From positions 1 to 12,219 of the IMG/VR virus record IMGVR_UViG_2545824708_000010: a DNA stretch of 12,219 nt. One strand, 5' to 3'. Positions within the stretch are counted from its first letter, which is position 1, and every line of letters begins with the position of its first letter. The translations under genes and the position numbers were made by a program. Origin of the DNA: a virus. Taxonomy: Duplodnaviria; Heunggongvirae; Uroviricota; Caudoviricetes. This document shows positions 1-12,219 of this stretch, in pieces. A model generated the notes under the pieces. The model was not told where the DNA came from. It ran no database searches and worked only from the letters and a program-made list of their open reading frames with translations.

Positions 1-250
1 GCTCAGCGGCTTTTTCCACCCACGGCCTGATATTGCTGTACGGTGGGTTATTCCAGATTGCACCGTGGCTTACCCACTCAGAATTGAGCGCGTCGTCGGC
101 CTCAGTTAGCCAGTGAGCACACAGAGCATTTTTGTCGCTCGCTGCCGAATCCAGCCAGAATCCAAACTCAATATCCAGTGCATCAAAAAGCCAAAGCGGC
201 GTTTGCCAGCAGTCCTTGTCGTGTGCCGGCGTATTTGATTTGATAGTCAT
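1..250 (-). CDS. Phage Dam-like N6-adenine DNA methyltransferase, 5' part only (gene continues past the window's left edge)
   Basis: Minus-strand translation from ATG at 250..248 gives MTIKSNTPAHDKDCWQTPLWLFDALD...AIWNNPPYSNIRPWVEKAAE with an NPPY motif typical of N6-adenine methyltransferases. Start overlaps the NinB stop (ATGA). Not in the ORF track because no stop lies in the window. Confidence 0.65.
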   Translation of the reverse strand, partial: MTIKSNTPAHDKDCWQTPLWLFDALDIEFGFWLDSAASDKNALCAHWLTEADDALNSEWVSHGAIWNNPPYSNIRPWVEKAAE

Positions 251-693
251 GCAGCCTTCCCTTTTCGTTGTGACCATTCATACTCTCGCCGGGAGTCATC
301 ACTCCACCGCACGTTGCGCTCTGAGCCGAACCAGAACATGATTTCGATAAGCTCAGTCATGCTGGCCTTTCGCATTTTGCTGGTACGCACGCCAAGCATG
401 ACAACGCCACCGTCGATACCAGGAACACTTCGTTGCTCCAGTTTTTTGGTCTTAAGCCACAGGGCAGTGAACAGGTCTTTCCAGTCTTCCGGTGCCAGCC
501 GTTGACCATGCCATAGCACCTGACGCGAAACATCGTTCAGCATCGGCCACATACGGTCATTCTGCGCTTTGCTGCGTTTGGGTTCTTTAAGGTGGACTTC
601 GTGGGGTGACTTGTCGTCGATGGGAAGTGAGAGTATTGCGTCTATGGCGTTATTTCTGATTGCTTCGTTGCGAAGCATGTATATTTGCTTCAT
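247..693 (-). CDS. ninB: NinB-like recombination protein (nin region)
   Basis: 148 aa ORF. The segment LNDVSRQVLWHGQRL...WKDLFTA...RWSDDSRREYEWSQRKGKAA resembles my recollection of lambda NinB (DVSRQVEWHGRWL...KWSDEARLALEW...RAA). Position downstream of the replication genes fits. Confidence 0.8.
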   Translation of the reverse strand: MKQIYMLRNEAIRNNAIDAILSLPIDDKSPHEVHLKEPKRSKAQNDRMWPMLNDVSRQVLWHGQRLAPEDWKDLFTALWLKTKKLEQRSVPGIDGGVVMLGVRTSKMRKASMTELIEIMFWFGSERNVRWSDDSRREYEWSQRKGKAA

Positions 694-979
694 CGAAATT
701 CTTCTCTTTAATTCCAGCGGATCTGATAGCTTTCATTACTGCAATTACCGTTTTGTCTCTCCCATCCTCATAACCCATCGCATAAGCACCTTCTTCACCA
801 TCTTTCCAAAAGTCGTCATTCGATTCGGGCCAGTCGATATCCAGTTCAATAGCTGCTCGCGATGCCTGCCATGCCTCCCATGCAATCTCGACCTTGATGT
901 GCATAATCTTCATCACGTCACTTGAAACGTGATATTTGTTTTTAAACCATTCTTCAAACTGCTTTCTTGATTCGTCCAT
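650..979 (-). CDS. Hypothetical nin-region protein (109 aa, acidic)
   Basis: ORF-track ORF with a GAGGG ribosome-binding site about 9 nt upstream of the ATG at 979. Overlaps the ninB start by about 44 nt. No motif recognised. Confidence 0.55.
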   Translation of the reverse strand: MDESRKQFEEWFKNKYHVSSDVMKIMHIKVEIAWEAWQASRAAIELDIDWPESNDDFWKDGEEGAYAMGYEDGRDKTVIAVMKAIRSAGIKEKNFDEANIHASQRSNQK

Positions 980-996
980 CGATACTTACCCTCAGT

Positions 997-1203
997 TCAA
1001 CTCACAAAACGCCACGCCATTTTTGCTACGACAACAGGCATAACACCGATAATCACCCAGACAAATGCAGCGCCAAACAACGTATACCATGGGTCTTTAC
1101 CGTCATTCACAAGACGAATGTAGCTATTCAGAACAATAAAAAACGTCAGAAGAATCCATCCAACGCCAACGCATTTGAATGCGACGAGCATAAACTCAGC
1201 CAC
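997..1203 (-). CDS. Small hydrophobic membrane protein (68 aa, about 2 TM segments), probable GTG start
   Basis: ORF-track ORF. The codon at 1203..1201 is GTG, preceded by GGGGGGAGAG at about 7 nt. Two hydrophobic stretches (WILLTFFIVL and FGAAFVWVIIGVMPVVVA). First ATG is at 1191. Confidence 0.45.
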   Translation of the reverse strand: MAEFMLVAFKCVGVGWILLTFFIVLNSYIRLVNDGKDPWYTLFGAAFVWVIIGVMPVVVAKMAWRFVS

Positions 1204-1216
1204 GATTTACTCTCCC

Positions 1217-1251
1217 CCCAAATAAAAAGGCCTGCGATTACCAGCAGGCCT
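1217..1251 (-). terminator. Intrinsic terminator between helicase and nin genes (tR2-like position)
   Basis: Perfect 8-bp stem AGGCCTGC/GCAGGCCT (1228-1235 and 1244-1251) with an 8-nt loop. On the minus strand it is followed by TTTTTATTT. Confidence 0.6.
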
Positions 1252-1279
1252 GTTATTAGCTCAGTGATGTAGATGGTCA

Positions 1280-2716
1280 TCAGAATCCTCCTTTCTTCTT
1301 GGACTGCGGTTCCTCGCGTTCACGGCGGCGCATTTCAGCAGACTGTTGGTCTGTGTCATAAATAGCGCCATTTGCCTGAATGCAATACACCGTGCCGGTA
1401 TTGCCATGACGATTGAGGCGAAGGATTAGTTCGGTTTCACCAGGAGGAACGCTGTCATCAAAAGCGCCTTCACGATGGATCCCCACCCAATAATCGCAAT
1501 CCTGTTCAATCTGCCCTGTATCTCGTGAGTCACTTGGTAATGGGCGTTTATTGGTTCGGCTTTCCAGTGCGCGGTTAAGCTGTGTCAGAAGCACAACAAC
1601 GCAATCAAGCTCTTTGGCAAGGTTCTTCAGTCCTTTGGTGATCATGCCGTAAGCAAGGTCGTTGCGATCGGCCTTCTCAGCGGTCATTAGTGTCAGGTAA
1701 TCGACCAGAATCATGCCAACACATCCTTTTTCTCGCTTGATTCGACGGCTTTCGCTGACGATTTGAGCCAGAGATAATCCCGGCGTGTCGTCGATGTAAA
1801 GCAGGTCGATTTCACTCAAGCGATTGGCTGTTTCGATCGCCCTGTTGAAGTCACCATCGTAATCACCCTGATAGCCGTCATCAGCGTCATTTGTCGCCAG
1901 AAGGTAAAAAATATTGGGGTTAACACCTGACTTTTGCCCTACCAGTTTTTCCAGTATCTGGTCACCTGGCATTTCAAGGCTGAACATCAGAGCGGGCTTT
2001 TTCTCATGCACTGCGCAGTTGATTGCCATCTGGCTGTATAGCGTCGTTTTCCCCATCTTAGGGCGAGCGCCAATGACAAACAAAGAGCCTTTCACCAGAC
2101 CTTTCGGTGACAGCATCCTGTCCAGCGATGGGATCCCTGTGCTCATTCCTCGTTGTTCGCCTGACGGGTCAAATCGCTTCTCAAGGTCGCTAACCCAGTC
2201 TTCCATGACCTCACCAAATGAGCGAAGGCCGCGACGCGATCCGGTTTTTGCATGGTCTGTCAGTTGCGTGAAAATCGCCTGAATAGCTTCGTACTTCTGC
2301 GTTGCAGTCATTCCGTTGCGGGAATAGAGCAATTCCGTCGCTTCAGTCATGCGGTTGATGGCGTAGCGTTCCATTGCGGTTTCACGAACCTGCATTGCAT
2401 AGGCAACGATGTTTGCTGCGCTTGGCGTGTTCTTTGCGATCTCAGCGATATAAGCAAAACCGCCAACAGACTCCGTTAACGATTTACGCTCCAGTTCATC
2501 GAAAAGCGTCAGGCCATCTACTGGCTTTTGCTCCCGGTGCATTATGGTTATTTCTTCGAAAAGGATTTTGTGTGGCCGGCTGTAAAATGAATCAGGCTTC
2601 AGCATCGCCAGAACTTTCTGGACGCGCTCACTGCTGTCATCATCCAGAAGCAATCCACCAATCACCGCCTGCTCTGCCTCGATGCTATGGGGCGGCGCAT
2701 AAAAATTATCGGTCAT
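1280..2716 (-). CDS. DnaB-family replicative DNA helicase (P22 gene 12-type)
   Basis: Walker A VIGARPKMGKTT, N-terminal DnaB-like HSIEAEQAVIGGLLLD, and a RecA-like core. The ORF-track start at 2731 is a GTG; the ATG at 2716 (MTDNF) has a GAGGG ribosome-binding site. Confidence 0.9.
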   Translation of the reverse strand: MTDNFYAPPHSIEAEQAVIGGLLLDDDSSERVQKVLAMLKPDSFYSRPHKILFEEITIMHREQKPVDGLTLFDELERKSLTESVGGFAYIAEIAKNTPSAANIVAYAMQVRETAMERYAINRMTEATELLYSRNGMTATQKYEAIQAIFTQLTDHAKTGSRRGLRSFGEVMEDWVSDLEKRFDPSGEQRGMSTGIPSLDRMLSPKGLVKGSLFVIGARPKMGKTTLYSQMAINCAVHEKKPALMFSLEMPGDQILEKLVGQKSGVNPNIFYLLATNDADDGYQGDYDGDFNRAIETANRLSEIDLLYIDDTPGLSLAQIVSESRRIKREKGCVGMILVDYLTLMTAEKADRNDLAYGMITKGLKNLAKELDCVVVLLTQLNRALESRTNKRPLPSDSRDTGQIEQDCDYWVGIHREGAFDDSVPPGETELILRLNRHGNTGTVYCIQANGAIYDTDQQSAEMRRREREEPQSKKKGGF

Positions 2717-3605
2717 CGTGTTCACCCTCACGAACTTTCAGGTAGGTATTATCGTTAAGCAGGAAATCAAATCCCTTTTTGTGCCAGACGGTTCCGCGTT
2801 GATGGTTTGGGCGCTCTTCGAACATCCATCGGCAATTTTCGCCTACGTAGCTCAAATAATTTCTCCAGTCCTGCATCGTGAACCCATGCCCGTCAAGCTG
2901 GCGGGGTATCACTCCGGCTTTGCGCCAGAACGTTCGGATCTGGTTTTTACGCTTGTCATTCAGTGCGCGGATTCTTGGCGCTTCAGGAAGGATTTCGTGG
3001 TAAGCATCGACAACATCCTGACAGCTAACGGAAGGTTTTTTCTTGTCAGACTTTTTGTCTGCTGCGGTACTCTCTAATACGTCAGTATTAGAGATAATAT
3101 TATTATATTCTTTATCTGTGGTAATTTGCTGGTAATCTGCTGGTACAGTATTGCTTGCAGGCATTGGTATTGCTGGCTTTGAGGTGGTAATTTGCTGGTA
3201 ATCTGCTGGTACAAAATTTGACTGATAATCGTCATATTTCTCTACCGAGAAAACTGAGAATTTACCGTGTGAAACCCAGTCAATCATGCCGAGTTTTTTG
3301 AACTTTCTAAGCAGGTACTGAACGCGATCTGGTTTGAGTCCTGTTTCAAACGCCAGAGAGTTTCTACCGCCAAGTAGCTTCCCTCTGCCTACCAGAATTT
3401 CTCCTGCGTCAGTCATTACATACTCAGGCGTATGCTTTGCTTTGAGGATTAAGTGAACCCACAGATGCGCAGCTTCTGCGTCCTTGTAAAACGGCACATC
3501 CATAATTTTACGGTGCAGCAAGGCATACCCCTTACCGCTGCTTTGATGCGGTTGTTGTAGCCTTCTGGCCTCTCTGGCTTCGGCTAGATTAGATATGTTA
3601 CTCAT
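2706..3605 (-). CDS. O-like replication initiator protein (origin-binding; P22 gene 18-type)
   Basis: 299 aa ORF directly upstream of the helicase with an AGGAG ribosome-binding site. Contains the iteron DNA repeats, which produce the duplicated peptide [10 protein letters not shown]; placement of ori inside the initiator gene is the lambda O/P22 18 arrangement. Confidence 0.8.
3074..3213. repeat. Replication origin: iterons plus adjacent AT-rich region inside the O-like gene
   Basis: Two near-identical roughly 30-bp blocks (3118-3148 and 3183-3213), each holding two GTAATNTGCTG units (3121-3131, 3132-3142, 3188-3198, 3199-3209). Flanked at 3085-3115 by an AT-rich stretch and a 7-bp inverted repeat CTAATAC/GTATTAG at about 3074-3091. 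Confidence 0.75.
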
Positions 3606-3744
3606 GACCTTTCTCCTTCTGCATCAGCTTCACTTTTTCCAACTCAGCCCGGAATCGACCAGGCTGCTTGAAGCTGGACAGGAAGCGATCACGTAGTATG
3701 TGTTTGTGAATTTTGTCCTGGTAAGGACTGAGTTGTTTTGTCAT
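3598..3744 (-). CDS. Hypothetical small protein (48 aa) between cII and the O-like gene
   Basis: Minus-strand ATG at 3744 preceded by AGGAG. Translates [48 protein letters not shown] and its stop overlaps the O start. Below the ORF-track size cutoff, found by hand. Confidence 0.35.
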
Positions 3745-3778
3745 AATTACTCCTGTGGATTGATCCAGTCTTTCTACA

Positions 3779-4057
3779 TCAGGCCTCGAAGAATTTGCCG
3801 TTCTTCGGGGCTTTTTCTTTTGTCAGCATTCTGGCTACTTTCTTAGCCAGTTCCGCCAACTCCTCGTCTTCAACACCCCATTCAAGAACAGCCAGAAGCA
3901 TTCCCATTTTTGGGATGAAGCTGTCTTTCCATCGCGAAATTTGCGATTCATTAATTCCTAACGCGTCAGCAACCTTTCGCTGGCCACGTACAGCAATTCG
4001 ATTCAGGATGTTGCTTGTAATTGCATTCGCTTTCTTGCGAGTACTTGTAAGTTGCAT
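3779..4057 (-). CDS. cII: CII transcriptional activator
   Basis: 92 aa. The segment [42 protein letters not shown] matches my recollection of lambda CII ([42 protein letters not shown]). The RBS/start context TTAAGGAAATACTTACATATG also matches recalled lambda. Confidence 0.9.
3784..3821 (+). terminator. Plus-strand intrinsic terminator inside the 3' end of cII (oop-like antisense RNA terminator)
   Basis: Stem CCTCGAAGAA/TTCTTCGGGG (3784-3793 and 3801-3810, one G-U pair), 7-nt loop, then CTTTTTCTTTT. It is antisense to the cII C-terminal codons, as for lambda oop RNA. Confidence 0.5.
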
Positions 4058-4066
4058 ATGTAAGTA
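4035..4066 (+). promoter_or_regulatory. pRE-like CII-dependent promoter (TTGC-N6-TTGT box plus -10 region)
   Basis: TTGC (4035-4038), 6 nt, TTGT (4045-4048), then 12 nt, then TAAGTA (4061-4066). This is the same spacing as recalled for lambda pRE. A perfect TTGC-N6-TTGC also lies at 4011-4024. Direction is toward cI. Confidence 0.5.
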
Positions 4067-4116
4067 TTTCCTTAACTAATAAGAAGTTATGCGCATCAAC
4101 TTATGCGCGTTGTATT

Positions 4117-4160
4117 CCCGCATTTCGGCGGGAATGAGGACCATGACTGTTAAAGAGCGG
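4117..4160 (-). promoter_or_regulatory. nutR (boxA plus boxB) between cro and cII
   Basis: On the minus strand: boxA CGCTCTTTAACA (plus 4149-4160), then a boxB hairpin UCCCGC-CGAAAU-GCGGGA (plus 4117-4132). The same boxA/boxB recurs on the plus strand downstream of PL. Confidence 0.6.
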
Positions 4161-4165
4161 TGTTA

Positions 4166-4360
4166 CTATTTGTTTTTCTTGTTGCTTGGGAAAGGACGAA
4201 CTTCCTCTCCAATCACACTGCCATCAGGCTTTACCGTAACCATGATGTTACGGCCTGCCAGAATGGCCTTGCTGATAGCGCACTGGATTACACCAAAGTC
4301 ACTGGCTGCTTTAGCCTGTCCATGGATTTTGGCGTAATCGGCAAGTGTCATTCGAATCAT
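4166..4360 (-). CDS. cro: Cro repressor
   Basis: The segment [62 protein letters not shown] closely matches recalled lambda Cro ([59 protein letters not shown]). The ATG at 4360 has a GGAG ribosome-binding site; the ORF-track start at 4366 is a GTG. Confidence 0.9.
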
Positions 4361-4385
4361 ATGCACTCTCCGTTATTAACCATGA

Positions 4386-4466
4386 ACAAAGAATACTACA
4401 GGTATTCAAAGCAATCAATACTCAGGGTATTTTTAGTTTAAGTACCTTAGCTATTAGAATTAAGCT
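4386..4466. promoter_or_regulatory. OR operator region with divergent PR (toward cro) and PRM (toward cI)
   Basis: Two palindromic operators: GAATAC-TACAG-GTATTC (4391-4407) and AATAC-TCAGG-GTATT (4418-4432), with a possible degenerate third near 4437-4454. PR candidate on the minus strand: -35 TTGATT (plus 4413-4418), 17 bp, -10 TATTCT (plus 4390-4395). PRM candidate -10 TAGAAT (4455-4460) ends 6 nt before the cI ATG, implying a leaderless cI mRNA as in lambda. Confidence 0.65.
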
Positions 4467-5183
4467 ATGGAAAATAAAAAATCACTGACGACAGAACAGC
4501 TGGAAGACGCTAAGCGGCTTAAGGCTTTGTATGAGTCAAAAAAGAAAGAATTGGGAATAACCCAATACTCAATCGCTGATGAACTGGGTATCACCCAAGG
4601 AGCGGTAGGGCATTATCTTAATGGCAGAAATGCGCTAAACGTTGAGGTTGCATCTGGTTTTGCACGATTGTTGCAAGTCTCAATTGCTGATTTTAGCCAG
4701 TCAATTGCTGCCAAGGTTGCAGAACAGGCAGAAAGCCTTAAGAGCGATGCCAACGTAAGGTATGCAGGGGAATACAGAGCAGGAAAGAGGTATCCGGTGT
4801 TAAGCAGTATCCAGGCTGGCTCGTGGTGTGAAGCATGCGAACCATACACCATTAAAGACATAGATGTTTGGCTTGAGTCTGACGCGCATATTCAAGGTAA
4901 TGCGTTCTGGCTTAAAGTGGAAGGTGATTCAATGACGGCACCGGTTGGGTTAAGCATTCCAGAGGGAACATTCGTTCTTTTCGATACCGGAAGGGAGGCG
5001 ATCAACGGCAGCTTGGTCATAGCAAAACTTTCTGACTCTAACGAAGCAACATTCAAGAAGCTGATAATCGACGGCGGAAATAAATACCTCAAGGGACTTA
5101 ATCCTGCATGGCCTCTCGTGCCAATCAATGGAAACTGCAAGATTATAGGCGTTGCAATTGAGACAAAACTAAGGCTGGTTTGA
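4467..5183 (+). CDS. cI: CI-type prophage repressor (HTH DNA-binding domain plus S24 LexA-like autopeptidase domain)
   Basis: N-terminus LTTEQLEDAKRLKALYESKKKELGITQYSIADELGITQGAVGHYLNG resembles lambda CI. The C-terminal domain has Ala-Gly (YAGEY), the GDSM serine and the FKKL lysine, and resembles the recalled P22 C2 C-terminus (FWL.V.GDSMTAP.GLSIPEG...NEATFKKL...NGNCKIIGV). Confidence 0.93.
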   Translation: MENKKSLTTEQLEDAKRLKALYESKKKELGITQYSIADELGITQGAVGHYLNGRNALNVEVASGFARLLQVSIADFSQSIAAKVAEQAESLKSDANVRYAGEYRAGKRYPVLSSIQAGSWCEACEPYTIKDIDVWLESDAHIQGNAFWLKVEGDSMTAPVGLSIPEGTFVLFDTGREAINGSLVIAKLSDSNEATFKKLIIDGGNKYLKGLNPAWPLVPINGNCKIIGVAIETKLRLV

Positions 5184-5200
5184 TCACGCAAGGGGCGATT

Positions 5201-5569
5201 ATGGTTGGAACCGCTATAGCAAGCTTTTTTGGGATGTTGGCAATCTCGACAATTTACGGCTTAGCGCATGCTTTTATTGCGAAATCTCTATCAGAAAAAA
5301 TAAGCCAGGCTTGGGCGCATAGATCAGCTCGTTTCATGATTCTAGTGATCATAGCAATACAAGGGATATCTGCATTTATCCTCTATGGTTCAAGCTTATA
5401 CCTGTTGTATCAAGGCGCGACATTTACGCCTTACACCAGTGATTACGGAACTCTATACGATGGTAGTGAAGACATCTCTATGGCTTGGATTGTCTTTGGT
5501 TTATCTATGGCCGTGTCTGTTGTAGCAGATATCATTAAGGTAATTCTCGTCTTAACCTTCGCTGACTAA
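5201..5569 (+). CDS. Small multi-pass membrane protein cotranscribed with cI (rex/sie position)
   Basis: ATG at 5201 with an AGGGG ribosome-binding site, 18 bp after the cI stop. 122 aa with 3-4 hydrophobic segments (AIASFFGMLAISTIYGLAHAFIA, FMILVIIAIQGISAFILYG, MAWIVFGLSMAVSVVADIIKVILVLTF). The ORF-track start at 5180 is a TTG overlapping the cI stop. Confidence 0.6.
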   Translation: MVGTAIASFFGMLAISTIYGLAHAFIAKSLSEKISQAWAHRSARFMILVIIAIQGISAFILYGSSLYLLYQGATFTPYTSDYGTLYDGSEDISMAWIVFGLSMAVSVVADIIKVILVLTFAD

Positions 5570-5655
5570 CCTATAATCCCGGCAGCAATAGCTATCGGGA
5601 TCCACTTCACATATCCCGCATAAAAAGCACTGAACAAGCAGACACCGAAAAAATA

Positions 5656-5745
5656 AATATCCTTTGTATTCATTTGCTTATCATTATTTCATCAAAAATA
5701 AATACCTTGGGTATTTACACAATAAAATACCTACAGTATTCTTTA
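5656..5745 (+). promoter_or_regulatory. OL operators and PL promoter
   Basis: Operators with the same half-sites as OR: AATAC-CTTGG-GTATT (5701-5715), AATAC-CTACA-GTATT (5727-5741), and a degenerate AATAT-CCTTT-GTATT (about 5657-5671). PL candidate: -35 TTTACA (5714-5719), 17 bp, -10 TATTCT (5737-5742). Confidence 0.65.
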
Positions 5746-5788
5746 GCCATCAGCAGGACGCTGGAAGCCAAACGGAACAGATTGGCAG

Positions 5789-5828
5789 GCTCTTTAACAT
5801 TGATGGGATTGTCCCGCCGAAATGCGGG
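5789..5828 (+). promoter_or_regulatory. nutL (boxA plus boxB)
   Basis: GCTCTTTAACA (5789-5799), 13 nt, then CCCGCCGAAATGCGGG (5813-5828). This is the same boxA/boxB RNA sequence as the nutR site on the opposite strand, about 45 nt downstream of the PL -10. Confidence 0.65.
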
Positions 5829-6273
5829 AACTGAGTTTAACCAAACAGGAGGTGCCGTAATGGTGCACTAACGCGGTTAGACCGCAGCCGAAAGGAAATG
5901 CAGCAGTAATGATGCTGCCCTGAGTCGCCATTGAGCGAGCCTGCTTAGCATCGGGTTAGGGTCAATATATTAAAAGTAGCTCCGGTAAAGCAGCGCGAAT
6001 GCCAGACGCGCACCGGTTATCAGCGGCGATGAAGCGGCAGAGACTCAAGGGCATGAGCGCGCTCACTGCGAGAGTGTGAGTCAAAGAGTAGTTGGCTTTG
6101 GGATTGGATGAATGAGCAGGCTGATGCTCGACCAATGTATAAACAGCGCTCATGGCAAGCAGTAACCAATCTGCGCCTCAAGACAGCGTCACTGGTAGTG
6201 CGGGCGCTCTAACCAGTAAGCCGGAATTCAGCACCGGCCATCCAATCACCAAAGTCAATCATCGGAGGTCAAC

Positions 6274-6546
6274 ATGACAGTAGTCATTACATATCTGGCT
6301 GACGATAACGCCAGAAATCGCCGCAGAGCACGCAGACAGGCTCAACGTGAACAGGCAATGCAAGAACAGCGACTGGCGCGAAAAATTGCGCTAAAGCTCT
6401 CTGGTTGCGTCAGAGCAGACAAAGCAGCATCACTCGGAAGCCTTCGCTGCAAGAAGGCAGATGAATGCAGTGGAAGTATTTGCCTGCCAAACGTAGCCAT
6501 TTACGCGGCAGGCTACCGGAAATCAAAACAACTGACGGCGAGGTAA
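6274..6546 (+). CDS. N: N-like transcription antitermination protein
   Basis: 90 aa. First gene downstream of PL/nutL, with a GGAGG ribosome-binding site. N-terminal arginine-rich motif NARNRRRARRQAQREQA, as in lambdoid N proteins. Confidence 0.75.
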   Translation: MTVVITYLADDNARNRRRARRQAQREQAMQEQRLARKIALKLSGCVRADKAASLGSLRCKKADECSGSICLPNVAIYAAGYRKSKQLTAR

Positions 6547-6548
6547 TT

Positions 6549-6941
6549 ATGGGTCAGGAAGAAAAATATGAGCTTAAAAAGCTCATTGAAGAAGACGCCA
6601 TAGAAGAAATTGCAGCATTAACAACAGCTATAAATAATATTAGGTATGCGCTAAATACGCTTATCTCCTCATGCGACAAAAATAGCAGGGAATTTTTGAT
6701 ACTTGGCGCAGCTCTAGGAATAGTTGATGCGGCAACGCTTCACCTAATTACTCATGACGATATTCTTATTGAGCCGTATGAAACATTACTGCTTGTCAGG
6801 CAAAAAATGGCTGATGCCGCAGCAAATGGAGACCTTCAACTTTACATCGACTTAAGGAAAGTATTAAGGCGAATGGTCAGAACTGAAGGAGATATCCCAC
6901 TGAGCGATGCTAAACAAGGCATACAAGCAAAGCTGGAATGA
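6549..6941 (+). CDS. Hypothetical protein (130 aa) in the early-left operon
   Basis: ATG at 6549 with a GAGG ribosome-binding site, starting 3 nt after the N stop. The ORF-track start at 6465 would overlap N. No motif recognised. Confidence 0.6.
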   Translation: MGQEEKYELKKLIEEDAIEEIAALTTAINNIRYALNTLISSCDKNSREFLILGAALGIVDAATLHLITHDDILIEPYETLLLVRQKMADAAANGDLQLYIDLRKVLRRMVRTEGDIPLSDAKQGIQAKLE

Positions 6942-7001
6942 CCATTATCCTGATGAAGTATCGAAAGCACAGTCAGCAATTAGCAAAGCTCTTGGGGAAG
7001 A

Positions 7002-7163
7002 ATGATGAATAAGAAATACATTGTTGAAGTTATAGAGCGAGAAACGAAAGAAGTAATCAAACATTTCGAATTTGATAATTATAGAAAACCTGACCGCGTA
7101 GAAGAAGGATTGTTGCGACAAAGTAATCTCGAAAAATTTGATGTTGTCATGCGATGCGAATAA
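7002..7163 (+). CDS. Hypothetical small protein (53 aa)
   Basis: ATG at 7002 preceded by GGGGAAG. Translates MMNKKYIVEVIERETKEVIKHFEFDNYRKPDRVEEGLLRQSNLEKFDVVMRCE. Below the ORF-track cutoff. Confidence 0.4.
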   Translation: MMNKKYIVEVIERETKEVIKHFEFDNYRKPDRVEEGLLRQSNLEKFDVVMRCE

Positions 7164-7256
7164 GCGCCTATAGCAGATTTACGAGTCTGCTATGTGAGCA
7201 ATGTCGCTCGTAACTAAACAGGAGCCGACTTGTTCTGATTATTGGAAATCTTCTTT

Positions 7257-7281
7257 GCCCTCCAGTGTGAGGGCCTTTTTA
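7257..7281 (+). terminator. Intrinsic terminator (tL-like) in the early-left operon
   Basis: Stem GCCCTC/GAGGGC (7257-7262 and 7269-7274), 6-nt loop, followed by CTTTTTAT. Confidence 0.55.
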
Positions 7282-7346
7282 TATGCATACCAATAACGCT
7301 TCACTCGAGGCGTTTTCGTTATGCAATCAAACAGAAGGAGCATCCT

Positions 7347-7517
7347 ATGCAACAGTTCGCTATTGCAGGGGCGGCATCGGTTCGCCCTTTCAACCCGATT
7401 TTATCGGTACAGCATTCACGAAAAAATATTTTAACCGGAGCAGACTTTAAACAACCAAGAATGAAAAGCTTGCTCGAAAAGCTTTGGGATATTTTGAAAC
7501 AACAAGGCCGTCCATGA
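7347..7517 (+). CDS. cIII: CIII-like small protein (56 aa; candidate FtsH inhibitor that stabilises CII)
   Basis: Strong AAGGAG ribosome-binding site 6 nt upstream. N-terminus MQQFAIAGAA and SLLEKLWDILKQQGRP resemble recalled lambda CIII (MQYAIAGWPVAG...SLLERITRKLRDGWKRLIDILNQPG). Position after N fits. The ORF-track start at 7242 is judged to be upstream read-through. Confidence 0.5.
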   Translation: MQQFAIAGAASVRPFNPILSVQHSRKNILTGADFKQPRMKSLLEKLWDILKQQGRP

Positions 7518-7543
7518 GTTTTACCAATAAGGGGAGCAAGTAA

Positions 7544-8635
7544 ATGGCTATTCAGACTAAAACATTGCAGGTACGCGTCAAAGACCGCCACGCCGCCTTG
7601 TTGCGTCAGATGGCCTTTGAAGTGAACCAAGTTTTTAACTTTATCAATGAAATGACTGCGACTGAATACAGCACTGTCAGCGAATACGGACCAAAACAAA
7701 GAGTTTGGTTAACTGAATTTGACGTAGATAAACGCATTGCTGGTATTCAAAAGGAGCGCGGATACCACATACAAGCAGCTACTTGTCAGGAAATCTCAAA
7801 ACATCACGCTAAAGCGCGTAAACAGTTTAAACGCAGTAAGCTGCGCTGGCGTAAAAGTGGCGGTGCTGGGCGTAGTCTTGGTTGGGTTCCGTTCAAAGGT
7901 GCTCAAGTGAAATGGGTAAACGGCTGCATCAAGTTTGCCGGGCACTATTTCAAAGTGTGGGATAGCTATGGATTAAATGGCTTTAAATTCCGTGCTGGTA
8001 ACTTTGCAGAAGATGCGCGCGGTCGCTGGTATTTCAATGTTGCAGTTGAATACGAATGCGAACCAACTAAAGGCACTGCCGACGTGGGTATCGATCTTGG
8101 TCTGAAAGACATTGCCACCACTTCGGATGGTGAAAAACTTCCTGCTAAACGTTGGTATCGTGAATTAGAAGGCAAATTAAAAATTGCTCAACGTGCCCAT
8201 AATAAAAAACGTGTTAGAGCTATCCACGCAAAAATCAAAAATCGCCGTAAAGATGCACACCATAAGTTTTCTACGGCGCTGGTTAATAAATACGCCGCTA
8301 TTTTTGTAGGCGACGTAAGCAGTAAAAAGTTATCAAAAACAAATTTGGCAAAAAGTATCTACGACGCCGGCTGGTGTCAGCTAAAAAATCAGATTCAGTA
8401 TAAAGCGATTGCGCGGAGTGTGGTTTTTGAGGTCGTAGATGAAGCGTACACCACCCAGACTTGCTCGTGCTGCGGAGCTATTAGCTGCAGTAGTCCGAAG
8501 GGTAGGGTAGGCCTTGGAATAAGAGAATGGATCTGCGTGGAATGTGGTGAACTCCACGACCGCGACGTAAACGCGGCAAAGAACATTCTCGCGGCGGGAC
8601 ATCGCCGTCTCGAAGGAGGAATCCACGCCCTTTAG
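7544..8635 (+). CDS. tnpB: TnpB-family protein (IS200/IS605 OrfB-type RNA-guided nuclease fold)
   Basis: 363 aa with a GGGGAG ribosome-binding site. RuvC-I VGIDLGLKDIATTSDG; an acidic residue in IFVGDVSS at the RuvC-II position; C4 zinc finger CSCCG...CVECG; RuvC-III HDRDVNAAKNI. Confidence 0.9.
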   Translation: MAIQTKTLQVRVKDRHAALLRQMAFEVNQVFNFINEMTATEYSTVSEYGPKQRVWLTEFDVDKRIAGIQKERGYHIQAATCQEISKHHAKARKQFKRSKLRWRKSGGAGRSLGWVPFKGAQVKWVNGCIKFAGHYFKVWDSYGLNGFKFRAGNFAEDARGRWYFNVAVEYECEPTKGTADVGIDLGLKDIATTSDGEKLPAKRWYRELEGKLKIAQRAHNKKRVRAIHAKIKNRRKDAHHKFSTALVNKYAAIFVGDVSSKKLSKTNLAKSIYDAGWCQLKNQIQYKAIARSVVFEVVDEAYTTQTCSCCGAISCSSPKGRVGLGIREWICVECGELHDRDVNAAKNILAAGHRRLEGGIHAL

Positions 8636-8643
8636 GGCGTGGA
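8622..8643 (+). other. Perfect hairpin at the tnpB stop codon (candidate right-end or guide-RNA scaffold element)
   Basis: TCCACGCCC-TTTA-GGGCGTGGA, a 9-bp perfect stem around a 4-nt loop that contains the TAG stop. Confidence 0.5.
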
Positions 8644-8901
8644 GGATGTCAAAGATAACTGGTCAGACAAAGAATTCATTCGTCAGATGAAAGAATTAAT
8701 CGGTAACGAAGGAGATATGCATGTCACTTGCAACCACAGTGAAGGAGAGCAAGTTACAGAGACGCATGTACACGCAGAAAGCTCTCTGGTATCGCCATAA
8801 TGGCGACCGCGAAGGAATGCGGGTATGCCTTAATTTGTCCCGAGTCGAAGTATTAAATCAGCGTTATTTCCTTGGGCCATGTCCATTCTGAGAACAATCA
8901 T

Positions 8902-9507
8902 ATGAGCAAAGAATTTTACGCAAGACTGGCAGCTATTCAGGAGAATCTGAACGCGCCAAAGAATCAGTACAACTCATTCGGCAAATATAAATACAGAAGC
9001 TGCGAAGACATTCTTGAAGGCGTTAAGCCGTTACTGAATGGCCTGTTTTTATCAATCAGCGATGAAGTTGTGCTGATTGGTGATCGGTATTACGTGAAAG
9101 CCACGGCAACTATTACCGATGGCGAAAACAGCCATACGGCAACCGCTCTTGCACGAGAGGAAGAAAGCAAGAAAGGAATGGATTCTGCACAAGTTACGGG
9201 AGCTACAAGCTCTTATGCACGCAAGTATTGCCTCAATGGTTTGTTCGGCATTGATGATGCGAAAGATGCAGATACCGACGAGCATAAACATCAGCAGAAC
9301 GCAGCAGCAAAGCAATCAAAACCATCACCTACACCTGAACAGGTTCTAAAAGCATTCACTGACGCAGCATTGCAGAAAAACACCGTAGAAGAGCTTAAAC
9401 AGGCGTTCGCCAAAGCGTGGAAGATGCTCGAAGGCACACCGGAGCAGCACAAAGCACAGGACGTTTACAACATCAGACGAGACGAATTAGAAGGAGCGGC
9501 TGCTTAA
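8902..9507 (+). CDS. erf: Erf-family single-strand annealing recombinase (P22 Erf-like)
   Basis: From the first ATG: MSKEFYARLAAIQENLNAPKNQYNSFGKYKYRSCEDILEG..., which matches my recollection of P22 Erf. Its stop overlaps the ssb start (TAATG). The ORF-track start at 8872 is a TTG. Confidence 0.8.
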   Translation: MSKEFYARLAAIQENLNAPKNQYNSFGKYKYRSCEDILEGVKPLLNGLFLSISDEVVLIGDRYYVKATATITDGENSHTATALAREEESKKGMDSAQVTGATSSYARKYCLNGLFGIDDAKDADTDEHKHQQNAAAKQSKPSPTPEQVLKAFTDAALQKNTVEELKQAFAKAWKMLEGTPEQHKAQDVYNIRRDELEGAAA

Positions 9508-9890
9508 TGGCACATTCGATTACTGTAAGACTAAACAAGCCCGCAAGAGAGTTTCAGGCCGGGGAAAATATCGGATTCAACATCCGTGCTGGCGTTCAGT
9601 ATTACGATCGCCAGACAAAAAAGAAAGAATGGACAAACTACAGCGCCGTTGTATTTGCCAAGCCGGGAGCGCAAGCGGATTACTACCGTAGTGTTCTTGT
9701 TGAAGGTGGCATTGTGGAAATTACCGGAGAAAACATCAGGGTTGATGTTTATCAGGGGCAAAATGGTCAATCAATCACTCTTGAATTACTGAATGCAAAG
9801 ATTGGATTTGCAACTTCAGGAAACAGCCAACAGCAGCAAAGTAGCAATCATCAAAATCATCCTGAATACGACGATTCAATTCCCTTCTAG
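9507..9890 (+). CDS. ssb: Single-stranded DNA-binding protein (short phage SSB)
   Basis: 127 aa. Predicted OB-fold N-terminus, a Q/S/N-rich linker and a C-terminal acidic tail DDSIPF (E. coli SSB ends DDDIPF). Translationally coupled to erf. Confidence 0.8.
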   Translation: MAHSITVRLNKPAREFQAGENIGFNIRAGVQYYDRQTKKKEWTNYSAVVFAKPGAQADYYRSVLVEGGIVEITGENIRVDVYQGQNGQSITLELLNAKIGFATSGNSQQQQSSNHQNHPEYDDSIPF

Positions 9891-9913
9891 ATTAGCAAAA
9901 TAAGGATTCCATT

Positions 9914-10207
9914 ATGCCAGCGCCTCTGTATGGTGCGGATGACCCGCGCCGCTGTTCCGGCAATTCCGTATCGGAGGTGCTGGATAAATTCAGAAAAAAC
10001 TACGATCGAATAATGTCTCTACCGCAGGAAACGAAAGAGGAAAAGGAGTTTCGCCACTGCATATGGCTTGCAGAGAAAGAAGAACGAGAGCGAATTTACC
10101 AGACATCAATCCGACCATTCCGCAAAGCCACATATACCCACTTCCCTGAAATCGACCCGCGCCTGCGTAATTACCGCTCACGCTATGGCGCTATCAGTAA
10201 TGACTGA
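9914..10207 (+). CDS. abc2: Abc2-like protein (candidate anti-RecBCD function)
   Basis: 97 aa with an AAGGA ribosome-binding site. Size and position immediately after erf/ssb match P22 abc2. The sequence identity is from uncertain recollection. Confidence 0.5.
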   Translation: MPAPLYGADDPRRCSGNSVSEVLDKFRKNYDRIMSLPQETKEEKEFRHCIWLAEKEERERIYQTSIRPFRKATYTHFPEIDPRLRNYRSRYGAISND

Positions 10208-10217
10208 GGAATTAACA

Positions 10218-10508
10218 ATGAAAACAATGAAGCTAAACATCGACCTCGGAAAATACGTTATTACCGGAACAAAACACGATCTGATTCTTAGCGAAAGAGG
10301 AATTATCAAAGAAGGCGAGAATGCAGGGAAAGAAACACTAAGCCGTATCGGTTATTACAGCAAGTTTGAGCATCTGGTTAAAGAGTTATGCAACCGTGAA
10401 ATCCTGTTATCTCAGGCGCAGACGCTACAGGATATTCAGCAGCATATCGAGACTTTAGGTGTGTCACTTAGCATGGCTATTGACCAGTTCGTGGAGAGTA
10501 AATCATGA
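10218..10508 (+). CDS. Hypothetical protein (96 aa) at the abc1 position
   Basis: ATG at 10218 with a GAGG ribosome-binding site 8 nt upstream. The ORF-track start at 10068 would overlap abc2. Confidence 0.5.
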   Translation: MKTMKLNIDLGKYVITGTKHDLILSERGIIKEGENAGKETLSRIGYYSKFEHLVKELCNREILLSQAQTLQDIQQHIETLGVSLSMAIDQFVESKS

Positions 10509-10666
10509 GAGGTCTTGCATACAATCCCGGCATTCTTCCGGCAGAAATGATTATTCGCCAACGCGTATAAGCCAATGCCATCGAGAGAGGAATTGCTTAA
10601 GAGAAATTCTTTTCCATCAGTGAATCAAAACAAATATCTGAATGCGATGTGGCGGAGTGGGAAGAA

Positions 10667-11110
10667 ATGAAACAAATGTCACTAATTGAGATGGATGGAT
10701 TTCTGAAAGGTAAATGCATCCCAAGTGATTTAAAGGTTAACGAAACAAACGCTGAATATCTGGTGCGTAAGTTCGGTGAACTTGAATCAAAACTAGAAAC
10801 AGCGTTGCGTGAGTGTCGTTCTGCTGGAATCACGATTGATAACCTTGAGGCCAAGTGCGCGGCGCTGGCTGTGGAGAATGCGGGGATGAAAGAATATCTA
10901 GCTCCAGTAGGGTTAGTGGTAGAGGGAACCCCAGCCACCGACGCCTTCCTGGCTGAAGTGCGGGCGCAGGGTGTGGAGATGGCTCGTAACGCGATGATTG
11001 ATTTTGTTGATGGTGAAGTTGGGCCAAACAAGAACGTTCCGGGGCTGATTAGAGGCGCAGAGATATGCGTAAGTATTGCTGCCCAGCTTCGCAAAGGAGG
11101 CAACCAATGA
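10667..11110 (+). CDS. Hypothetical protein (147 aa)
   Basis: ATG at 10667 with a GGAG ribosome-binding site. The ORF-track start at 10649 is a GTG. Stop overlaps the next gene's start. Confidence 0.55.
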
Positions 11111-11388
11111 GCGTAATCCAGTACGTAGTTAGAGATGCAGGCACGTTTCCTGAGGATGCGTTTTTTCTCGATCCTCGACACATCGATGAGCTCATTTCTG
11201 AGTGGGAATTGGAATGCTTGTCTCAGGATGCCTCCCTTGATTATTTTGACAATCATGACGGCTTGGAATCTGACTGGCCGTTGGATATCGAGCTATTCAT
11301 TGACGGTGAGAGCGTAGGTGTATTCACGGTTGAAATGGAACATGTACCTCAATTCAGCGCAAGAAAAATACCGGAGGCCGCCCAATGA
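11107..11388 (+). CDS. Hypothetical acidic protein (93 aa)
   Basis: ATG at 11107 with an AGGAGG ribosome-binding site. ATGA overlap with the following gene. Confidence 0.55.
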   Translation: MSVIQYVVRDAGTFPEDAFFLDPRHIDELISEWELECLSQDASLDYFDNHDGLESDWPLDIELFIDGESVGVFTVEMEHVPQFSARKIPEAAQ

Positions 11389-11915
11389 GCAACATCGACA
11401 AACGCGCATTACGTCATAGCGCAGAAAGCATAATCGGCATTCTGGAAAACATTGCCGGGTTCGAACCATCTGATATCGACGGCGACTCTGTAGAGCTCCG
11501 CTTTGAAACTGAGGACGGTTTCGATACTGGTTGTGACGTTAGCATTGTTGACCAGTGCCAGAAAACCGCTGATGTAGTTCGGGCGCTGCTGGATGAGCTG
11601 GAAAGAAACCAGCAATACATCAAACGCCGCGATCAGGAGAACGAGGATATTGCGCTAACGGTAGGGAAGCTGCGCGTTGAGCTTGAAGCAGCAAAATCAA
11701 AACTCAACGAGCAGCGTGAATATTACGAGGGAGTAATCGCGGATGGAAGTAAGCGCATAGCAGAACTGGAGGAGCGGGAAATACTGCTCCCGGAACGTAG
11801 CAGCATGCTTCATCGAACAGATTTTCACGAGGATTACCAAACGGTAATGGCATACAAAGTTTCTGAAGTCATCGATGCAATCCGCGCTACTGGCATTCGC
11901 ATCAAAGGAGAGTGA
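11385..11915 (+). CDS. Hypothetical protein (176 aa) with probable coiled-coil segment
   Basis: ORF-track ORF, translationally coupled to the preceding gene. Central heptad-like stretch ELERNQQYIKRRDQENEDIALTVGKLRVELEAAKSKLNEQREYYEG. Confidence 0.6.
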   Translation: MSNIDKRALRHSAESIIGILENIAGFEPSDIDGDSVELRFETEDGFDTGCDVSIVDQCQKTADVVRALLDELERNQQYIKRRDQENEDIALTVGKLRVELEAAKSKLNEQREYYEGVIADGSKRIAELEEREILLPERSSMLHRTDFHEDYQTVMAYKVSEVIDAIRATGIRIKGE

Positions 11916-11916
11916 T

Positions 11917-12219
11917 ATGAGCGCTATAACCAAAGAACGTGTCGAATTATTCATTAAAAATCCGCTTGATAACGGACTTACCCGTGGCGAACAAATGGAA
12001 CTGGCACGAATTGCACTGGCATCGCTGGAAGCAGATCCAGTTAAACGAGTTAACTCAGATCAGATGCGCCGAGTCTGCTTAGAAGCTAATCGCCATTTAG
12101 ATAAATATGACGCGATGGCGAAAGAGGTAAATAAGTTGCTTGGACGCATCGCCCCGCCAGCGCCGGTAGTGCCGGAAGAAGCAACTCCGGAAAACGTAGA
12201 AATGCTCTCTGGCTATGTT
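11917..12219 (+). CDS. Hypothetical protein, 5' part only (runs off the right edge of the window)
   Basis: ATG at 11917 with an AAAGGAGAG ribosome-binding site, 2 nt after the previous stop. Open for 101 codons to the window end. Not in the ORF track because it lacks a stop. Confidence 0.5.
   Translation, partial: MSAITKERVELFIKNPLDNGLTRGEQMELARIALASLEADPVKRVNSDQMRRVCLEANRHLDKYDAMAKEVNKLLGRIAPPAPVVPEEATPENVEMLSGYV

Follow-up and report, generated by a model that had tools for sequence, protein, structure and literature searches.

The window, a stretch of 12,219 nucleotides comprising positions 1 to 12,219 of the Caudoviricetes record IMGVR_UViG_2545824708_000010, was recognized from its ORF calls and its Pfam and PHROG matches as the early region of a lambdoid prophage. 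Genes for a DnaB-type helicase, an O-like initiator, cII and cro lie on the minus strand, while cI, the target ORF, the OL/PL operators, nutL and N are arranged on the plus strand, followed by further early-left genes, a solo tnpB, erf and ssb among them. A pattern search for AATAC-N5-GTATT returned five matches against 0.32 expected, two of them at OR and three at OL. The two perfect OR operators (4392-4406 and 4417-4431, unstranded) are located in the divergent cro/cI promoter region (PR/PRM), and the HK620 record annotates OR1-OR3 at the equivalent position. The first gene of the immunity operon is cI (4467-5183, plus strand), encoding a repressor of 238 aa with HTH_3 and Peptidase_S24 domains (Pfam E=5e-24 and 8e-10) that is 99-100% identical to the cI proteins of HK620, mEpX2 and HK630. 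Next comes hkaS (5201-5569, plus strand), whose 122-aa product has three predicted transmembrane helices. A stem-loop without a U-tract (AUCCCGGCAGCAAUAGCUAUCGGGAU, 5576-5601, plus strand) starts 7 nt past the hkaS stop, and beyond it the pattern search located the OL operators (5656-5670 with one mismatch, 5701-5715 and 5726-5740, unstranded). PL, supported by a promoter scan and by the HK620 annotation, has its -35 element TTTACA at 5714-5719 and its -10 element TATTCT at 5737-5742. The start of the early-left operon is marked by nutL (5788-5829, plus strand; HK620 annotation transferred by alignment), which is composed of boxA GCTCTTTAA and the boxB hairpin CCCGC...GCGGG, and the far end of the cI-to-N slot is formed by the N antiterminator gene (6274-6546, plus strand; Pfam N_peptide E=1e-15, PHROG 271). 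From cI to N, the window shares 99% identity with the immunity regions of HK620, HK630, HK140, mEpX2, HF4s and vB_EcoP-611R6, and likewise to those of two Stx2c-converting phages.

Several other features were observed in and around the window. A 250-bp segment directly past the nutL boxB (5832-6081) is missing from HK620 and 611R6; it occurs in 54 complete E. coli genomes, always once per genome, is present in Stx2c phages as well, and is 100% identical in O145:H28 RM12581. Because it is single-copy in each genome, the possibility that it is a mobile element was rejected. A minus-strand terminator-like hairpin lies inside this segment at 5900-5918, and Rfam searches at gathering thresholds found no structured RNA anywhere in the window, the segment included. 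An ORF at 6465-6941 (plus strand), listed with 158 aa, overlaps the end of N; its match to PHROG 7374 begins only at residue 29, and the real start is therefore probably the ATG at 6549, for a product of about 130 aa. The solo TnpB gene (7544-8635, plus strand; flanks about 7200-8870) encodes a member of the RNA-guided endonuclease family (NCBIfam guided_TnpB, E=1e-61) that also matches Cas12f profiles, and no tnpA accompanies it within the window. Against HK542, 720R6 and mEp043 the TnpB region aligned as separate blocks, which cover a much shorter distance in those genomes; since the blocks lie closer together there, ~1.1-1.4 kb carrying tnpB seems to have been inserted upstream of erf within the early-left operon. 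The annotation of an E. coli strain 631 prophage with an identical hkaS splits the DnaB-like helicase gene into two pseudogene halves separated by ~1 kb, suggesting that the replication gene has been interrupted by an insertion in this copy (2051-4516 of the extracted locus).

The target ORF is hkaS of coliphage HK620 (AF335538; AAK28867 / NP_112052), where it is annotated "unknown". The HK630 record names the product "HkaS protein" and all other records list it as hypothetical. The window's protein is 97.5% identical to that of HK620, and identities range from 97.5 to 99% across the listed phage copies, which come from HK630, HK140, mEpX2, HF4s, 611R6, phi296/phi367 and the Stx2c phages Stx2_EH1904 and Stx2_5044. 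PHROG 6534, a family of unknown function, matches over the full length (residues 1-122/122, E=2.9e-79). The gene is already catalogued as an ORF, and its PHROG membership supplies a name but no function; a literature search recovered no functional, expression or phenotype study of hkaS under any name or accession.

The coding sequence runs from its ATG to a TAA at 5567-5569, confirming the 122-aa ORF called by the first-pass annotation. It starts 17 nt past the cI stop; the 18 bp stated in that annotation is correct as a stop-to-start offset but not as the actual gap. Direct reading of the spacer revealed a Shine-Dalgarno sequence AAGGGG (5190-5195, plus strand) 5 nt before the ATG. Both the ATG and a purine-rich element of this kind persist in six divergent variants, whose protein identity falls as low as 52%, in agreement with the earlier claim that the gene has its own ribosome-binding site. 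An upstream TTG start (5180; 129 aa) used by some gene callers was rejected for want of conservation. hkaS was intact and exactly 122 codons long in 81/81 loci from IMG/VR and GTDB, and the length remained constant at 122 aa down to 50% identity. Pairwise dN/dS values, calculated for pairs without synonymous saturation, were 0.12-0.21, and two Salmonella copies showed 11.8% synonymous and 0% non-synonymous differences. Within E. coli, piN/piS was 0.26 for hkaS versus 0.014 for cI, so that constraint on hkaS is roughly 18 times looser, yet purifying selection is clear. Synonymous diversity was equal in the two genes (0.028 in hkaS and 0.024 in cI), indicating that they share one common history. 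Judged from these comparisons, hkaS is a genuine gene under purifying selection. The opposite proposition, that it is a mis-called or non-functional hydrophobic frame kept only by its linkage to cI, would fit the missing domain matches and the very narrow distribution, but the uniformly intact reading frames, the low dN/dS (0.12-0.2), the absence of non-synonymous change between the Salmonella copies, the conserved Shine-Dalgarno sequence and ATG, the constant length and a confident structure model all speak against it, and the conservation data essentially exclude it.

The gene is co-oriented with cI, and the gap between the two measures 17-20 nt in 80/80 loci that contain upstream DNA. A promoter and terminator scan found no promoter-like or terminator-like site in the cI-hkaS interval, and across 4000-6600 PL at 5714-5742 was the sole consensus promoter. 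From the shared orientation, the 17-nt spacing and the lack of an intervening terminator, co-transcription of hkaS with cI from PRM/PRE can be soundly inferred. The order cI, hkaS, OL/PL, nutL, N places the gene at the rex position, and it stands alone behind the repressor, both as previously proposed: zero ORFs were found between cI and hkaS, and a later ORF is not conserved. A very hydrophobic antisense ORF of 35 aa (MNTKDIYFFGVCLFSAFYAGYVKWIPIAIAAGIIG, 5570-5677, minus strand), convergent with hkaS, was considered as a partner or toxin and rejected; it has no counterpart in the variants from Salmonella and metagenomes, differs in Hafnia, and probably does not represent a gene. The interval after hkaS carries additional small ORFs in the annotation of some phage records.

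The stem-loop at 5576-5601 had an RNA fold z-score of -2.7, and the Salmonella, metagenome and Hafnia variants carry a hairpin of other sequence at the same place (z -2.6 to -3.9). The terminator scan reported no plus-strand terminator at the post-hkaS hairpin, and none of the hairpins has a proper U-tract. Together these hairpins look like a conserved transcript-end structure, and the one in the window is a candidate 3' end of the cI-hkaS transcript, serving as a terminator or a stabiliser. In the HK620 record, the annotated tIMM corresponds to 5651-5681 of the window and OL3 to 5678-5694. Because the one-mismatch operator at 5656-5670 (AATATCCTTTGTATT) is conserved in all divergent loci, and because a better hairpin is present at 5576-5601, the positions published for OL3 and tIMM may be shifted.

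The distribution of hkaS was then surveyed at several depths. A word-seeded search yielded 12 clusters (90% identity). Exhaustive profile searching across 1.84 billion representatives yielded one cluster at 50% identity plus a 44-aa fragment, and the GTDB species representatives contained one Buttiauxella hkaS locus. The family is represented in E. coli, Hafnia, Salmonella, Buttiauxella and metagenomes, and none of the cluster, profile and GTDB searches found HkaS relatives in bacterial chromosomes outside prophages. Every member has a repressor with HTH_3 and S24 domains 17-20 nt upstream and the region leading to N downstream. cI and hkaS each occur in 146/5426 complete E. coli genomes (2.7%), at 147 places each, and hkaS is linked 1:1 with the HK620-type cI. 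Sliding-window comparison delimited the homologous block as cro to OL/PL, at about 4166-5795; beyond its ends, neither cII on one flank nor the leader and N on the opposite flank are related from locus to locus. Inside the block, identity is 79-95% for cI and cro (cI alone 85-95%) as opposed to 50-83% for HkaS. The block resides in P22-like Lederbergvirus podoviruses, in Lambdavirus, in HK97-like Hendrixvirinae and in Stx2c phages. Since it is found across such unlike phage types, we assign hkaS on sequence grounds to a cro-cI-hkaS-OL/PL immunity module that is independent of virion type. Composition was of no help in judging a foreign (moron) origin, as the difference in GC content between hkaS (41.5%) and cI (45.3%) is too small to use.

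Hydropathy analysis of HkaS revealed three hydrophobic spans at roughly residues 4-24, 45-70 and 94-118. AlphaFold2, supplied with an 8-sequence alignment, modelled three long helices (2-29, 41-73 and 89-121; mean pLDDT 89.6), a short amphipathic helix (31-38) and a small beta-hairpin in the second loop. In all five lineages loop 1 contains 4-6 K/R, and loop 2 contains 0-1 K/R and 2-4 D/E; this charge bias predicts an N-out/C-in orientation. HkaS is therefore likely an inner-membrane protein whose N-terminus and loop 2 are periplasmic and whose loop 1 and C-terminus are cytoplasmic. The first-pass annotation had described a polytopic membrane protein with 3-4 helices; the polytopic character is upheld, and hydropathy and AlphaFold2 concur on three helices rather than four. 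Invariant residues include Q54, YLLY 67-70, D110, K113 and the TFAD that ends the C-terminal ...ILVLTFAD. The best-conserved features, which are cytoplasmic or intramembrane, comprise a KIxQxWxHRxARF loop, Q54, the D110/K113 pair and the TFAD tail, and the periplasmic loop is the fastest-evolving part of the protein (2/23 positions invariant).

We compared HkaS with known exclusion and defence proteins by profile and structure searches. There was no significant match in Pfam or NCBIfam, no match to holin families in Pfam or PHROG, and PADLOC-DB 2.0 gave 0 families at E<=1. A sub-threshold match to Cation_ATPase_C (19 bits against a cut-off of 27) was confined to four close members; because it is missing in divergent HkaS members, it was rejected as hydrophobic-composition noise. 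The hhalign probability was 0.6% for RexB and 0.3% for P22 SieA, and 0.15% against HK620 hkaP, which is SieB-like; no RexB model appeared among the Pfam and PHROG matches at E<=1, and there was no Pfam SieB match. A structure search with HkaS returned only generic helix-bundle matches and no structural analogue. By these profile comparisons and its model, HkaS is a sequence and fold orphan. The lack of similarity to RexB noted by eye in the first-pass annotation is thus confirmed, whereas its description of the locus as the classic signature of a superinfection-exclusion or abortive-infection determinant did not gain from the HMM and structure searches proposed alongside it: RexB, SieA and SieB all fell below 1%, no exclusion or defence family proved homologous, and the argument is one from position alone.

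Likeness to known systems is more readily found in architecture and location. RexB of lambda occupies the same slot between cI and OL/PL, co-oriented with cI, and both RexB and HkaS are small polytopic inner-membrane proteins expressed, or presumed to be expressed, in the lysogen. RexB spans the membrane with four helices. HkaS differs in having 122 aa and three predicted helices as opposed to 144 aa and four; moreover, the RexB gene adjoins its partner rexA, whereas hkaS has no RexA-like neighbour, and the promoter scan detected no internal promoter equivalent to lambda PLIT for hkaS. T4 Imm, P22 SieA, HK97 gp15 and lactococcal Sie2009 are small inner-membrane proteins that block injection as single proteins. 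HkaS, being small, predicted to lie in the inner membrane and solo, resembles SieA, T4 Imm and HK97 gp15, with Imm and gp15 likened by description, although it has no Pfam match to any injection-blocker family. sieA also differs in its setting, as it adjoins ejection-protein genes and has its own promoter, whereas hkaS sits behind cI. Class I holins have three transmembrane helices in an N-out/C-in orientation, the topology predicted for HkaS from the charge bias in five lineages. However, these holins bear a highly charged cytoplasmic C-terminal tail and are encoded in the lysis cassette, whereas HkaS ends in its TFAD motif and is encoded in the immunity operon. SieA is documented as a small inner-membrane protein acting alone (PMC10883804). 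BstA of BTP1 and other prophages shares the locus downstream of cI and a presumed common promoter (PMC8585504), but in contrast to BstA, HkaS is a predicted membrane protein and lacks a PADLOC match.

In lambdoid phages the stretch from cI to N is a mosaic hotspot, with rexAB and bstA among its occupants (PMC8585504), and BstA is, by analogy, the best modern precedent for regarding the slot as a defence site. Two orphan genes, 44 and 45, lie behind the repressor of epsilon34 (PMC2629481), and a 2025 survey described RdgC/RexA-like genes at the cI-adjacent position and implicated lambda RexA in prophage induction as well as exclusion (PMC12315714). We surveyed the slot in Sf6, BHUENT3 and ST64T, whose repressors are 48-65% identical to the window cI. 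Sf6 carries gene 38 (2208-2612 of the extracted locus), the 134-aa product of which was judged by eye to have a signal-peptide-like N-terminus and no further hydrophobic stretch, and was read as secreted. Enterobacter phage BHUENT3 carries two ORFs unrelated to hkaS (2270-2986 of the extracted locus), one of 127 aa with paired CxxC motifs and one of 109 aa with a C-terminal hydrophobic stretch, and ST64T has no gene in the slot behind its repressor. Thus Sf6 gene 38, the BHUENT3 ORFs and epsilon34 44/45 share the position of hkaS, with cI proteins 53-65% identical, but encode unrelated proteins. Given that the cargo behind related repressors is unlike or missing, the slot is a variable cargo site that holds cargo of mixed types.

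We propose that HkaS is lysogen-expressed cargo of the HK620-type immunity operon. hkaS would be transcribed with cI from PRM, and additionally from PRE at establishment, and translated from its own ribosome-binding site. The protein would insert by its three helices, with the N-terminus and the acidic 23-residue loop in the periplasm and the basic amphipathic loop and the invariant TFAD tail in the cytoplasm. Acting alone at the inner membrane, it would keep heteroimmune phages out by preventing their genomes from entering or a channel from forming, much as T4 Imm, P22 SieA and HK97 gp15 do, and the lysogen would survive. Expression in the lysogen, exclusion and the step of action are what we infer, and we assign this reading, in which a single inner-membrane protein bars the entry of heteroimmune phages, a probability of about 40%. 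An exclusion or abortive role is plausible from context, and homology neither strengthens nor contradicts it. The slot is documented as a hotspot of lysogen-expressed defence (rexAB and bstA, PMC8585504; epsilon34 44/45, PMC2629481), which by analogy favours exclusion. The spread of the module among virion types fits a function that serves the lysogen, the variable periplasmic loop accords with a surface that faces incoming phage, hkaS stands without a sensor partner, a protein made constitutively with cI must be harmless, and the known solo blockers are likewise small inner-membrane proteins. On the other side, no homology or fold match connects HkaS with exclusion or defence proteins. Sie genes of P22-like and HK97-like phages, sieA for example, typically adjoin tail or ejection genes and not cI, and known Sie proteins target a matching injection apparatus, whereas the hkaS module is independent of virion type. 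Only about 23 HkaS residues are predicted to be exposed to the periplasm; the best-conserved parts are cytoplasmic or intramembrane and might instead indicate a partner in the cytoplasm; the quicker evolution of HkaS may be due to no more than weak constraint; and the slot also carries non-membrane and secreted cargo.

HkaS might instead be an abortive-infection effector: a pore or holin-like protein, latent until a product of the infecting phage triggers it, that depolarises or permeabilises the inner membrane and kills the cell before progeny are made, resembling RexB in function but without a RexA-type sensor. The predicted topology is that of class I holins, and the invariant polar or charged residues Q54, D110 and K113 within helices are not what a passive anchor usually contains and could form the lining of a pore. 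Shut-off of PRM on induction would presumably spare the phage's own lytic growth, and the slot is common to rexAB and bstA (PMC8585504). Nevertheless, we consider such an effector improbable: there is no RexA-like or other sensor gene, and a solo gene without a partner argues against a Rex-type two-component sensor/effector; RexB is dissimilar both by hhalign and in having four helices, not three; the charged C-terminal tail typical of holins is absent, as is any PADLOC match; and constitutive co-expression with cI in every lysogen implies that HkaS is not toxic at rest.

The remaining alternatives concern the lysogen itself. HkaS could be a lysogenic conversion factor that alters the envelope, transport, stress tolerance or a host membrane protein, a role in keeping with a cargo site expressed in lysogens, with the presence of the gene in 2.7% of complete E. 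coli genomes, in many hosts and in Stx2c phages too, with a conserved cytoplasmic loop and C-terminal tail that suggest a host partner, and with the heterogeneity of other slot cargo such as the secreted Sf6 gp38. It is nonetheless unlikely, as the family is limited to one immunity module with no relatives on non-prophage chromosomes and bears no transporter or enzyme signature, Cation_ATPase_C being below threshold and missing in divergent members. The strict pairing with cI could alternatively reflect functional coupling beyond linkage, with HkaS modulating the phage's own life cycle, that is, lysogeny establishment, induction or lysis timing, for example via FtsH/HflKC or holin triggering. 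Its perfect co-inheritance with one cI/cro/operator specificity in E. coli, Hafnia, Salmonella and Buttiauxella would agree with this, as would its production from PRE at establishment, expected from the operon layout, and the role in the lysogenic-to-lytic transition with which lambda RexA and RexB are credited in work cited in PMC12315714. However, the 17-nt spacing by itself accounts for the co-inheritance, being too short for recombination to act within it; divergence is far faster in HkaS than in cI and cro, which is unexpected for a tightly co-adapted regulatory partner; and related repressors operate with other slot cargo or none. We regard a life-cycle modulator as more doubtful still than an abortive effector.

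Returning to exclusion by a single inner-membrane protein, HkaS may, although we put this forward only tentatively, be the founder of a new anti-phage family of this kind, with a mechanism unlike those of RexB, SieA and Imm. Such a family would have co-diverged with one repressor specificity in Escherichia, Hafnia, Salmonella and Buttiauxella, and would protect its lysogens, those of Stx2c phages included, against heteroimmune phages, possibly by means of the intramembrane D110/K113 pair and the TFAD tail. The presence of a gene at this position will not surprise a specialist; HkaS is nevertheless a candidate new small anti-phage membrane protein, and the uncharacterised slot genes of Sf6 and BHUENT3 are worth study beside hkaS. 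Should HkaS prove not to exclude phages, it would serve as a further reminder that a position behind cI alone does not mean defence. If it does, a minimal one-gene membrane defence would join the short list at the rex locus, the cargo carried by the HK620 immunity module in about 3% of E. coli genomes and in some Shiga-toxin phages would be explained, and a protein of 122 residues would become available as a model for the arrest of infection by a tiny membrane protein.
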